Source: a virus
Taxonomy: Duplodnaviria; Caudoviricetes
DNA: 64,000 nucleotides
Virus record (IMG/VR): IMGVR_UViG_3300005686_000008
Strand: one strand, 5' to 3'
The stretch's first letter is position 1. Every line of letters begins with the position of its first letter. Made by a program: the position numbers and the translations under genes. The notes below the pieces were generated by a model that did not search any database, was not told the origin of the DNA, and saw only the letters and a program-made list of their open reading frames with translations. Positions 48,324 to 50,672 of this stretch are shown here, one piece after another.

Positions 48324-48352
48324 TTGACTTTTGCGGAAATAGCCGATAGAGT
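48324..48352 (+). promoter_or_regulatory. sigma70-type promoter of the Trp/Val/His/Ile leader
   Basis: TTGACT (48324-29), N17, TAGAGT (48347-52); same -10 hexamer as the Leu leader promoter. Confidence 0.75.
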
Positions 48353-48371
48353 ATGGCGGAGTAGTACAGAA

Positions 48372-48437
48372 ATGAACAACAAGATAGTACATCAGGTGAT
48401 TTGGCATGTCATTACCTTCAGGGGTAAGGGCTGTTGA
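48372..48437 (+). CDS. attenuator leader peptide MNNKIVHQVIWHVITFRGKGC
   Basis: GGAG SD; 9 of 10 consecutive codons are Ile/Val/His/Trp; overlaps protector and antiterminator segments. Confidence 0.8.
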   Translation: MNNKIVHQVIWHVITFRGKGC

Positions 48438-48465
48438 CTACTTGATGTATGTTGACGGATTCTCG

Positions 48466-48497
48466 AACCCCTGAGCAAAAGTGCTTAGGGGTTTTTT
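48466..48497 (+). terminator. attenuator terminator
   Basis: AACCCCTGAGC-AAAAGT-GCTTAGGGGTT followed by TTTT. Confidence 0.85.
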
Positions 48498-48532
48498 GTT
48501 TGGTTCTTTGACAAGTGAATAGTTAGCATTTT

Positions 48533-48603
48533 ACGCCGTTGGTCTAGTGGCTGGGCCTTGGATTCCAAATCCAACGACGCGGGTTCGATTCCCCCACGGC
48601 GTG
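48533..48603 (+). tRNA. tRNA-Trp(CCA)
   Basis: Acceptor ACGCCGT/ACGGCGT, loop TTCCAAA, discriminator G. Confidence 0.85.
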
Positions 48604-48608
48604 TTCAT

Positions 48609-48681
48609 CCGCCGTTAGCTCAACTGGTAGAGTTCTGGATTCCAAATCCAGCGGTTGCGGGTTCGATTCCCCCACGGCGGG
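48609..48681 (+). tRNA. tRNA-Trp(CCA)
   Basis: Acceptor CCGCCGT/ACGGCGG, loop TTCCAAA, discriminator G. Confidence 0.9.
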
Positions 48682-48778
48682 CTTGCTGGCTAAACTTTTC
48701 TTGTGATTTCACAAAATAATGAGAAAGGTCTAGTCGATAAGACCTATAGTTTCTTTCCTTTCTTTTTGGAGATTTTCA

Positions 48779-49117
48779 ATGTCTGATACCAAGTCTTCTC
48801 GTCCTCGTCGTCCTCTTCAGAAGCCTGTTTTCATTATTCAGGATTTCGATCCTTCGAATCCCGAACACATGAAGGGCAATGTTCCGATTATCCTGAACAA
48901 GGCTTTGGCCTTGGAACTCGTCAAGTTCATCAGGGAAAGCGAACTTGGACCGAACGAAGGACATATTTACGCCATGCAGGGACGCTTGGGGCGTTGGTAC
49001 AAGAACCGTATCGAACATATCAGGAAGTTGAAGGCTGAAGAGGCCAAAACTGCGCTTCCTGAAGAAGTTCATGATGAGATTCATGAAGAGTCTCATGAGA
49101 ACCCGGTTCAAGGCTGA
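48779..49117 (+). CDS. hypothetical protein
   Basis: GGAG SD; lies inside the tRNA cluster. Confidence 0.6.
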   Translation: MSDTKSSRPRRPLQKPVFIIQDFDPSNPEHMKGNVPIILNKALALELVKFIRESELGPNEGHIYAMQGRLGRWYKNRIEHIRKLKAEEAKTALPEEVHDEIHEESHENPVQG

Positions 49118-49127
49118 GCAGTTATTT

Positions 49128-49200
49128 GGGCGCATACGTCAGCGGCTAGACGGCTTCCTTTACACGGAAGAGGGCGGGGGTTCAAATCCCTCTGCGCTCA
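49128..49200 (+). tRNA. tRNA-Val(TAC)
   Basis: Acceptor GGGCGCA/TGCGCTC, loop TTTACAC. Confidence 0.9.
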
Positions 49201-49221
49201 TTTCCCTATGTGGGATTTGAT

Positions 49222-49294
49222 GGTGGCTATAGTTCAAAGGCTAGAATACCTGGTTGTGAGCCAGGGGGTACGGTTTCGAGATCCGTTAGCCACC
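49222..49294 (+). tRNA. tRNA-His(GTG) with G-1
   Basis: G-1 GTGGCTA/TAGCCAC C, loop TTGTGAG. Confidence 0.88.
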
Positions 49295-49307
49295 CTTTGA
49301 TTTGTTT

Positions 49308-49379
49308 AGGACTGTAGCTCAGAGGCAGAGCATTCCCTTGATAAGGGAGGGGTCGGGATTTCAATATTCCCCAGTCCTA
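49308..49379 (+). tRNA. tRNA-Ile(GAT)
   Basis: Acceptor AGGACTG/CAGTCCT, loop TTGATAA. Confidence 0.85.
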
Positions 49380-49386
49380 TTTTCCC

Positions 49387-49476
49387 CGGATAGTGTCCTG
49401 AGTTGGCTAAGGGGCCGCCTGATAAGCGGTGCATACTCCACAAGAGTATATGTAGGTTCGAGTCCTATCTATCCGA
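49387..49476 (+). tRNA. tRNA with GAT (Ile) anticodon and a long variable arm
   Basis: Acceptor CGGATAG/CTATCCG, loop CTGATAA, variable arm ATACTC-CACAA-GAGTAT. Confidence 0.8.
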
Positions 49477-49488
49477 TTATAATCTTAT

Positions 49489-49562
49489 GGGCGTCTGGCG
49501 CAATTGGCTAGCGCGCTTCTTTGACGTAGAAGAGGTTCCGGGTTCGAGTCCCGGGATGCCCA
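49489..49562 (+). tRNA. tRNA-Val(GAC)
   Basis: Acceptor GGGCGTC/GATGCCC, loop TTGACGT. Confidence 0.9.
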
Positions 49563-49597
49563 CTTCAGACTAAACTTTTTGGGGAGAATATTAAGAC

Positions 49598-50477
49598 ATG
49601 CGTAAGGACATGAAAAAGGTCGTTACTGAGAAGGGCGCTGTCGGAGGCGTCGGCAATTTCATGATCCGCCGCAATCGTCGTCAGGTTAAGAAGGCCTGCT
49701 TGGACGGTAACGAAGACGTTGATTCTCTCAACTTCCACGGAATCAGGAAGGTTCACACCTCCAGCCCCTGTTCTTGGGATAACCTCAAGTCATCGGGGTG
49801 CAACTCGAATGTCATCCGTCGTTACCTCAAGTCCCGTGTTGGCCAGGTGTGGAACGATGTCTACAGCGACATGAGCAAAAACCTGGACCGTAAGGCTCTC
49901 GATAATGTCAACTGGATGGTCGAAACCAAGACTTTCTTTGAGAATGGCAAGATTTGGGTCGCCGGCATCCCTCCCACTGTCCTTGGTTTGTCGTACCATC
50001 GCGATGAGTTCTATGTTGACCCGAGGGACGGGACACTGCGCTGCATGCCGCAGGCCGCAGGCTCCTGGCGGTAAGCATTACGCCGCTCGTCGCATGGAGA
50101 TGATGGACAGGTTCCGCTACATTGATTCAAAGAAACCTCTCGTTCAGTACCACTGCATCAATGGTATTTGGTACGAGATCAAGCTCCGCGAGGCTTCTGC
50201 TTCCGAGAAGAAGGAGAAGTCCTTCGGCGAGTACCGTCGCAACTACAATCGTGCGACTTTCATGCTTGAGACGGAGTGGTGCAGGATTTACAACAACGCC
50301 ATTGTTGACCAGCTTGTTGAAAACCACAGGGAAGCTCTCGTTTTCGAACGTGATAATGTTTGGGAGCTTTGCGTTTCACTGTTTCGCGGTCATTACTTAC
50401 CCATCTCGAAGAGGCAGATTTCCTCGAAGGAGATTCGTCTCGTTAAGGAGTTGATGGAAGAGAGAGACAAGGAGTGA
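49598..50477 (+). pseudogene. hypothetical phage gene split by a 7-nt tandem duplication
   Basis: (GCCGCAG)x2 at 50047-50060; removing one copy joins ORF 49598 in frame to the 49905..50477 frame (RCMPQAPGGKHY). Confidence 0.7.
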
Positions 50478-50518
50478 AGTCTGTAGGACTAAACTTCTGT
50501 AAGTCGAAAAATGTTTGA

Positions 50519-50594
50519 GGGATGCGTGTTGCCGAACGGTTTAGGCTCTCGACTCATAATCGAGGCAATGTGGGTTCAAGTCCCACCCATCCCA
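50519..50594 (+). tRNA. tRNA with CAT anticodon (Ile2 or Met), irregular acceptor/D junction
   Basis: GGGATG/CATCCC, CTCGA-CTCATAA-TCGAG, T arm GTGGG/CCCAC. Confidence 0.7.
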
Positions 50595-50600
50595 TTTGTT

Positions 50601-50672
50601 AGGCTCTTAGCTCAGCGGTAGAGCAGGAAACTCATAATTTCTTGGTCGCCGGTTCGAATCCGGCAGAGCCTA
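50601..50672 (+). tRNA. tRNA with CAT anticodon, probably Ile2
   Basis: Acceptor AGGCTCT/AGAGCCT, loop CTCATAA; body resembles Ile2 tRNAs. Confidence 0.85.

Follow-up and report, generated by a model that had tools for sequence, protein, structure and literature searches.

We analysed a 64,000-nucleotide stretch of DNA (hereafter the window) from a huge uncultured phage (IMG/VR record IMGVR_UViG_3300005686_000008) and found that the sequence in front of its two tRNA-Trp genes has the layout of a leader-peptide transcription attenuator. A sigma-70-type promoter is followed by a short open reading frame (ORF) crowded with Ile, Val, His and Trp codons, by RNA segments that can pair in alternative ways and by an intrinsic terminator, and tRNAs for these same four amino acids are encoded downstream. 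Judging from sequence comparison and modelled folds, we consider it likely that this is a ribosome-mediated attenuator of the classical type, with 1:2, 2:3 and 3:4 helices, that is multivalent in its codons and has tRNA genes as its output.

The phage genome has 370,652 bp, 40% G+C and 25 tRNA genes including an amber suppressor. Its DNA was found in bioreactor-sludge runs, and its relatives in wastewater and freshwater metagenomes and among IMG/VR viral contigs. Relatives were reached by three routes, namely by using the neighbouring proteins as queries, by a back-translated pattern of the leader, and by look-ups of homologues of the 98-aa upstream protein. The comparative set comprised 12 further metagenomic loci with the attenuator unit (referred to below by locus handles such as L014) and 9 distinct leader sequences. 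When viral contigs were scanned further with patterns for the leader unit, two contigs came up, both of them already known.

The leader ORF is conserved as a coding sequence

The leader ORF (MNNKIVHQVIWHVITFRGKGC, 21 codons and a TGA stop) occupies positions 48372-48437 on the + strand of the window, on which all features of the unit lie, and no other frame stays open throughout the 9 distinct homologues. We found that the start, frame and stop are kept in 9/9 leaders despite indels of whole codons (3 nt) in L016, L067, L069 and L071. An overlapping alternative frame, starting in GGC-ATG-TC, is without its ATG in 4 of the 9. The 10-codon core (GTA to ACC) has three variable sites at first, none at second and five at third codon positions, and the minimum substitutions among the 9 leaders are, in the same order, 3, 0 and 7. 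The core changes are synonymous or Ile/Val swaps, except at a lone non-cognate residue. Most leaders have Gln there, L016 has Glu and L068 has His, so that the L068 leader carries 11 consecutive residues from I/V/H/W. Of the three first-position changes, two form an Ile/Val swap pair in L016 and the third hits the non-cognate residue. When the L071 core was compared with that of the window, five changes were found, all of them synonymous (CAG->CAA, GTG->GTC, CAT->CAC, GTC->GTT and ATT->ATA). The codons just 5′ of the protector hairpin described below vary by lineage (AAG ATA; ATA GTC; ATA GTT; GTT ATA; ATT ATA) and nearly always encode Ile or Val, and free variation is seen in the C-terminal third of the peptide. 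This substitution pattern is of the coding type, and the comparative signal argues that the leader is translated.

The surroundings of the leader are conserved as well. In all relatives the gene order is a cREC-type receiver gene, the 98-aa gene, the promoter, the leader, the terminator and tRNA-Trp in one or two copies. Past tRNA-Trp, the loci carry one to three small ORFs followed by Val(tac), His, Ile (one or two copies) and, in most of them, Val(gac), and CAU tRNAs are present where the locus extends far enough. Altogether, the leader unit is syntenic with the same tRNA block in 13/13 loci, including L016, whose tRNA-His was overlooked by ARAGORN and detected by Rfam with the anticodon GUG. 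More distant loci with a homologous neighbour gene (L029, L003, L004, L009 and L039) carry other tRNA sets; in L029, the one among them that was read for leaders, no comparable leader was found in the tRNA upstream regions. As judged from these loci, the leader unit belongs to this phage clade and is not tied to the neighbour gene.

Leader codons cover the tRNA species encoded downstream

The regulatory codons ATA GTA CAT CAG GTG ATT TGG CAT GTC ATT span positions 48384-48413, as defined by codon content and by the masking folds described below. An initial annotation of this DNA had proposed that these codons, apart from that for Gln, are matched by the tRNAs behind them, and our tRNA search located every one of these genes on the + strand. 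Two tRNA-Trp(CCA) genes (48532-48682) are the first genes past the terminator; tRNA-Val(UAC), His(GUG), two Ile(GAU) and Val(GAC) follow at 49127-49563; and two tRNAs with a CAU anticodon (Met or Ile2), which are candidate ATA readers, lie at 50528-50587 and 50600-50673. The genome's only Trp, Val, His and Ile tRNAs lie behind this leader. The proposal that the leader lists the amino acids of the downstream tRNAs extends to the relatives, as at least one codon each for Trp(CCA), Val(UAC), Val(GAC), His(GUG) and Ile(GAU) is present in 9/9 leaders. The codon classes kept in all of them are TGG, GTA/GTG, GTC/GTT, CAT/CAC, ATT/ATC and one ATA, the last of which sits elsewhere in the L071 leader.

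To rank this composition, we used 5000 ATG-initiated ORFs of 12-45 codons from both strands of the genome, with the amino-acid set fixed by the downstream tRNAs and not picked from the peptide. The leader, in which nine of ten consecutive residues fall in the set {I,V,H,W}, took the top rank, and it is the only one of these ORFs in which at least eight of ten residues are I/V/H/W and all four amino acids occur.

The second tRNA-Ile(GAU) gene (49387-49476) is 90 nt long, which is unusual for a tRNA-Ile, and its counterparts in the relatives measure 88-92 nt. Rfam did not report this gene in the window or in L016, and its length suggests an insertion or an intron.

Alternative helices of the leader RNA co-vary among relatives

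The leader RNA folds more stably than its shuffled versions (z = -4.4). Its first element is a protector (1:2) hairpin of about -28 kcal/mol at 48387-48450, recovered by RNAalifold, in which the segment TACATCAGGTG (48388-98) faces TACTTGATGTA (48439-49). The regulatory codons make up the 5′ arm of this hairpin, and segment 2 (TTCAGGGGT, 48417-48425), the antiterminator strand, is hidden in its 3′ arm. Segment 2 can pair instead with segment 3 (ACCCCTGAG, 48467-48475), the 5′ arm of the terminator, as seen in per-sequence folds and in their co-variation among relatives. On re-reading the sequence, the positions first given for the hairpin arms and for segments 2 and 3 proved exact. The intrinsic terminator (48465-48497), identified by folding and RNAalifold, has a 13-bp stem (48465-48494) with a 4-nt loop, a folding energy of about -20.5 kcal/mol and a run of six U residues (48492-48497). 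It ends about 35 nt 5′ of the first tRNA-Trp, which starts at 48532, and is present in all homologues.

RNAalifold analysis of the 9 sequences recovered both the 1:2 hairpin and the terminator, and eight pairs with double compensatory changes were found in the 1:2 and 3:4 helices, including pairs in the inner stem of the 1:2 hairpin. Structure and coding are tied together in L016, where the Val->Ile change GTC->ATC is matched by GGC->GAT in the opposite arm.

The antiterminator was judged sequence by sequence, by folding each transcript without the terminator 3′ arm while a ribosome was placed on the Trp codon; column-wise counts of antiterminator pairs were dropped because the window row is displaced by one base here in the MAFFT alignment. 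We found that segment 2 pairs with segment 3 in 9/9 sequences, with 8-11 bp that cover 8-11 of the 12-14 nt of the 5′ arm. In the window, UUCAGGGGU in segment 2 pairs with ACCCCUGAG in segment 3, and the duplex (-15.9 kcal/mol) is matched by 1.5% of shuffled leaders. The corresponding segments are UCCAGGGGU and ACCCCUGGG in L014, with a change from U-A to C-G; CUCAAGGGGU and ACCCCUUGAG in L001 and L068, with an added A:U pair; CCAAGGGGU and ACCCCUUAGG in L069; and UAAGGGGUUCU and AGAACUCCUUG in L071, with a new GUUCU:AGAAC extension, whose five pairs make up for a C-to-U change in the arm. In most homologues segment 2 starts 15 nt past the first base of TGG.

We then modelled the position of the ribosome by masking the RNA around the A site (-15 to +11 nt) and folding transcripts without the terminator 3′ arm. 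In these folds the antiterminator is predicted to form when the A site is at codons 5-12 (Ile/Val/His/Gln/Val/Ile/Trp/His) and to be blocked further on. In the window the block covers codons 13-20, and in L001, L012 and L014 it extends from codon 14 up to the stop; the result for L016 was less clean. The antiterminator is probably lost at the later codons because the ribosome would then cover segment 2. When the RNA was folded without a ribosome, the 1:2 hairpin formed first and segment 2 was hidden.

Promoter and flanking elements of the unit

By sequence pattern, the promoter TTGACT-N17-TAGAGT lies at 48324-48352, and its -10 element is, as had been noted before, the same as that of the unit in front of the Leu tRNAs (Leu unit). 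The pattern TTGAC[AT]-N16-18-TAGAGT has only two copies in the whole genome, in this unit and in the Leu unit (45753), and both precede tRNA clusters. The promoter is kept in 12/12 related loci as TTGAC[AT] or TTGAAA, N16-17 and TA[GCT]A[GA]T, usually with GCCGA in front. A Shine-Dalgarno-like GGAG (48358-48361) stands 10 nt 5′ of the ATG, at the predicted transcript start, and may be only partly transcribed. In most relatives, GGAG or GGA is found 9-13 nt 5′ of the ATG, within a longer 5′ untranslated region (UTR) that carries a 5′ hairpin. This 5′ UTR measures 34-42 nt and opens with a small stem-loop that occurs in three sequence versions (for example at 17124-17164 in L001) and is without a counterpart at 48353-48371 of the window.

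Between the terminator and tRNA-Trp, comparison of the relatives revealed a conserved element (TTGACAAGTGAATAGT, 48508-48523) of the form TTGACAA-nn-GAATA-n-T, which is found in 11/12 related loci and is absent from L001. Its spacing to the tRNA 5′ end is 21 nt in the window and 21-27 nt in most relatives, and is longer in L014 and L016. The element ends 8 nt before tRNA-Trp in the window and would be too near the tRNA to serve as its -35 element there, since a normally spaced -10 would fall inside the tRNA. The same TTGACAA-nn-GAATA-n-T element occurs again at 45911-45926 in the Leu unit, and also about 14.6 kb before the window start, directly 5′ of a tRNA-like sequence near a Ro60 locus.

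All relatives conserve the spacer that separates the 98-aa gene from the promoter (48256-48323; …GAAGGAATTC…TAATCGGTATGAGTG…AATCGG…), and most of them carry an extra insertion of about 80 nt there. This spacer may be an operator or another RNA element.

Proposed mechanism and alternative explanations

According to the proposed mechanism, the host RNA polymerase would start at the sigma-70-type promoter and a ribosome would translate the 21-codon leader. If the Ile, Val, His and Trp codons are read fast, the ribosome would reach the stop codon and cover segment 2, the terminator (3:4) would form, and transcription would end about 35 nt before tRNA-Trp. Without translation, the 1:2 hairpin would bury segment 2 and lead to termination likewise. 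A ribosome that stalls with its A site at codons 5-12 (ATA GTA CAT CAG GTG ATT TGG CAT) would melt the 5′ arm of the 1:2 hairpin, and the freed segment 2 would pair with segment 3 before the 3′ arm of the terminator is made. The polymerase would then read into the two tRNA-Trp genes and probably on through a 112-aa ORF into Val, His, Ile, Ile and Val. As the products would be the very tRNAs that relieve the stall, the loop would act as a supply-and-demand homeostat for these tRNA species. The attenuator reading of the initial annotation is upheld by the coding-type substitutions of the ORF in 9 homologues, by the compensatory changes in the helices and by the predicted switch at codons 5-12.

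More tentatively, the leader might be a codon-for-anticodon test strip, in which loss of any one tRNA species would induce replacement phage tRNAs as an inducible, self-limiting counter-defence. This stronger version is possible, and we would not put it higher than that. The tRNA loss could be caused by host shut-off, by the codon demand of late infection, by host anticodon nucleases or by other tRNA-depleting defences.

Several observations weigh against an attenuator that senses these tRNAs. At equilibrium, folding of the full terminator together with a masked ribosome let the terminator win at every ribosome position, and the switch therefore rests on the usual kinetic argument; classical attenuators likewise favour the terminator at equilibrium, and their choice is kinetic. 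The gap from the -10 element to the ATG is only 19 nt in this genome, and the predicted start site cuts the GGAG. Because much of the core doubles as the 5′ arm of the hairpin, part of its conservation is structural. The tRNA set is invariant among the relatives, so that co-variation of leader and cluster can be compared only between units and not within the family. The terminator-proximal genes are those for tRNA-Trp, yet the leader has just one Trp codon. In L002 and L012, a 152-aa ORF on the opposite strand stands between the terminator and tRNA-Trp. Finally, the distal Val/His/Ile tRNAs very probably have a second, attenuator-independent route of expression, which is considered in the last section.

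Some of these points would fit other explanations better. A real translation-coupled attenuator might sense general translation capacity, such as ribosome availability after host shut-off or the timing of infection, with the I/V/H/W content being secondary. The switch structures would respond to any slowing of the leader ribosome, and the single Trp codon before two Trp tRNAs agrees with such a sensor. However, the composition of the leader is extreme (rank 1 of 5000), I/V/H/W are kept at the amino-acid level through synonymous changes while all downstream tRNA species are covered in 9/9 leaders, and the neighbouring unit pairs Leu codons with Leu tRNAs, so we regard a general-capacity sensor as unlikely. 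The fragment from promoter to terminator (about 140 nt) might also be a stand-alone small gene or RNA that acts in trans, with a terminator that also ends the upstream operon and an incidental tRNA adjacency. The unit does own a promoter and a strong terminator, the inserted ORF parts it from tRNA-Trp in L002 and L012, and there is precedent for trans-acting attenuator products in Sinorhizobium, where attenuator-derived leader peptides and RNAs have been described with trans functions (PMC7298713, PMC7968998). Against this, the C-terminal half of the peptide varies freely (F/S/R/L/P, K/S, G/D/S) while the I/V/H/W codons stay, the conserved 2:3 complementarity to the terminator arm would serve no role, and synteny with the same tRNA block holds in 13/13 loci; an independent trans-acting gene is in our judgement improbable.

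The unit might also be nothing more than a structural RNA, such as one that serves processing or stability, or a terminator complex, whose open frame arose by chance from the hairpin sequence. In favour of this, the most conserved nucleotides are also paired in the 1:2 hairpin. We hold a purely structural RNA to be very improbable, since substitutions distribute 7:3:0 on codon positions 3:1:2, indels come in threes, the start and stop are always kept, and the codons 5′ of the hairpin, though variable in sequence, still encode Ile/Val in most lineages. The preferred reading remains a leader-peptide attenuator that senses the decoding of its Ile, Val, His and Trp codons.

The inserted ORF was also inspected in its own right. 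In L012 (IMGVR_UViG_3300033121_001334) the insertion lies at 1340-1798 in + strand coordinates of the locus, with the 152-aa ORF opposite in strand and the 3′ half of the terminator duplicated beside it. Its Cys and His motifs look HNH-like by eye and it gave no Pfam match; from its sequence, it may be a homing endonuclease aimed at the tRNA region.

Relation to known attenuators

In its logic the phage unit resembles the multivalent attenuators of enterobacteria, whose family features are well established. Like ilvL of ilvGMEDA (Ile/Val/Leu) and thrL (Thr/Ile), it has a short promoter-proximal ORF with several kinds of regulatory codons, 1:2, 2:3 and 3:4 alternatives, a terminator before the regulated genes and a stalled-ribosome spacing that frees segment 2. 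Unlike in ilvL and thrL, the regulated genes are phage tRNA genes and not biosynthetic enzymes, and the signal would be the supply of tRNA rather than of amino acid. There is also no sequence relationship to the enterobacterial leaders, as no Rfam leader family, Leu_leader and Thr_leader included, matched at its gathering score. At that score Rfam reported tRNAs alone on the unit, and otherwise chance-level matches at E up to 10. The trpL and hisL leaders (Rfam Trp_leader RF00513 and His_leader RF00514) follow the same logic with Trp or His codons as sensors, whereas the phage leader has single or double codons of four amino acids and not a tandem run of one. His_leader gave the best leader match, which was below threshold (16.2 bits vs a gathering score of 49; E = 2.1), and Trp_leader gave no match.

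Leader-peptide control of a translation component that is cognate to its own regulatory codons is known from the pheST attenuator of E. coli (pheM leader). In contrast to pheST, which is bacterial and monovalent, the phage unit would put out tRNAs and not an aminoacyl-tRNA synthetase. A Phe leader on the tRNA-Phe genes of E. coli was considered as a further case and dropped, as the tRNA-Phe gene pheV of K-12 is without a Phe-rich leader or attenuator upstream. T-box riboswitches likewise act in cis by switching between terminator and antiterminator, and they monitor the state of one particular tRNA; unlike the phage unit, a T-box binds uncharged tRNA directly and without translation, and it controls synthetase, biosynthesis and transporter genes. 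The T-box covariance model gave no match to the unit even at E up to 10.

Leader-peptide attenuation is known to control amino-acid biosynthesis, one synthetase operon and a number of genes for transport and resistance. In a full-text literature search, we found no account of leader-peptide attenuation of tRNA genes in phages or bacteria. The mechanism itself is known; what is new is that the regulated genes are tRNA genes, that the setting is viral and that codons are laid out to match anticodons. A tRNA output changes the meaning of the sensor, in that a stall would report the shortage of a tRNA species and the response would supply that species. If this is true, phages would gain demand-driven control of their own decoding capacity, and the amino-acid-wise grouping of tRNA genes in huge phages would be explained. 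The proposal concretely connects the tRNA sets of phages with tRNA depletion in the host or with immunity that targets tRNAs, and the leader sequence could be used to predict the downstream tRNAs on incomplete contigs.

A Leu unit and other tRNA clusters of the genome

The Leu unit (45753-45920) has the same plan as the Trp/Val/His/Ile unit, with a Leu-rich leader before 5-8 tRNA-Leu genes in this genome and its relatives. The leader reads MKNASLLSLSLLLLS here and takes forms such as MNTNFNSLLCGLLLLE in the relatives, where a different terminator is accompanied by a matching, co-varying new antiterminator. We identified a third sigma-70-type promoter, TTGACA-N17-TAGACT in a GCCGATA context, about 25.5 kb before the window start and 5′ of the first tRNA-Glu. 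The ORF behind it (MNSSFKFLEQRNFQERR) has two Glu and three Arg among 17 residues and is followed by two hairpins, and no U-tract terminator was found before tRNA-Glu. This unit may be related to the attenuators, either as a degenerate form or as a Rho-dependent one. For the Arg, Lys and amber-suppressor tRNAs and the CAU tRNA at 52934, no sigma-70 promoter of the tRNA-unit type was found; leaders were not sought upstream of these genes, except that the region of the first tRNA-Arg was viewed. It had further been suggested that the grouping of tRNAs behind a matching sensor is a general design. This holds for the Leu and the Trp/Val/His/Ile units, but not in full for the tRNA-Glu unit with its missing U-tract terminator.

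Possible reach to the distal tRNAs and a phage-specific motif

In the window, the terminator and the two tRNA-Trp genes lie too close together for a separate sigma-70 promoter to fit between them. The Val/His/Ile block lies 445 nt beyond tRNA-Trp, behind an ORF of 112 aa (48779-49117, + strand) that has no Pfam family. The octamer CTAAACTT is found 5′ of this ORF at 48690-48697 on the + strand. By motif count, it has 91 copies on this strand of the genome vs 12 on the other and is about 18-fold over-represented, with 49 copies in the window, for example at 46370, 46817, 47890, 48690, 49570 and 50489. The octamer has the extended form G-A/G-CTAAACTTT-C, clusters in about 60 kb, and mostly stands 11-30 nt 5′ of start codons or tRNAs; the relative L014 uses CTAGACTT in the same role. 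From this distribution, CTAAACTT is probably the promoter of a phage-specific transcription system.

Because the octamer and the ORF precede them, the distal Val/His/Ile tRNAs may be expressed independently of the attenuator. The initial annotation had cautioned that additional CTAAACTT elements could uncouple these tRNAs; the caution is justified and carries more weight than it was given, although the three copies concerned, at 48690, 49570 and 50489, had been placed 2 nt off. On the other hand, the leader lists the amino acids of the distal tRNAs in every relative, from which we infer that read-through of the attenuator also reaches them. We therefore put the odds that the attenuator controls the distal Val/His/Ile tRNAs at about even.

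Logan contigs of three wastewater metatranscriptomes contain relatives at a low share. One of these contigs spans 48179-48516 and ends about 20 nt past the U-run, and a second bridges 48422-48605, from the terminator into tRNA-Trp; such contigs show neither transcript ends, strand nor level, and DNA carry-over is possible in both cases, so that neither contig was weighed for or against the attenuator.

Two further ORFs, of 158 aa (49598-50074) and 190 aa (49905-50477), overlap in different frames between two CTAAACTT motifs. Neither has a Pfam match, and they could be one frameshifted gene or two overlapping genes. Moreover, a hybrid-looking promoter is located about 42.1 kb before the window start, in which CTAAACTT replaces TTGACT and the remainder is near-identical to the promoter of the Trp/Val/His/Ile unit (…TGCGGAAAAGCCGATAGAGT); it is followed by a structured non-coding RNA of about 140 nt and then by an ORF with an early in-frame TAG.

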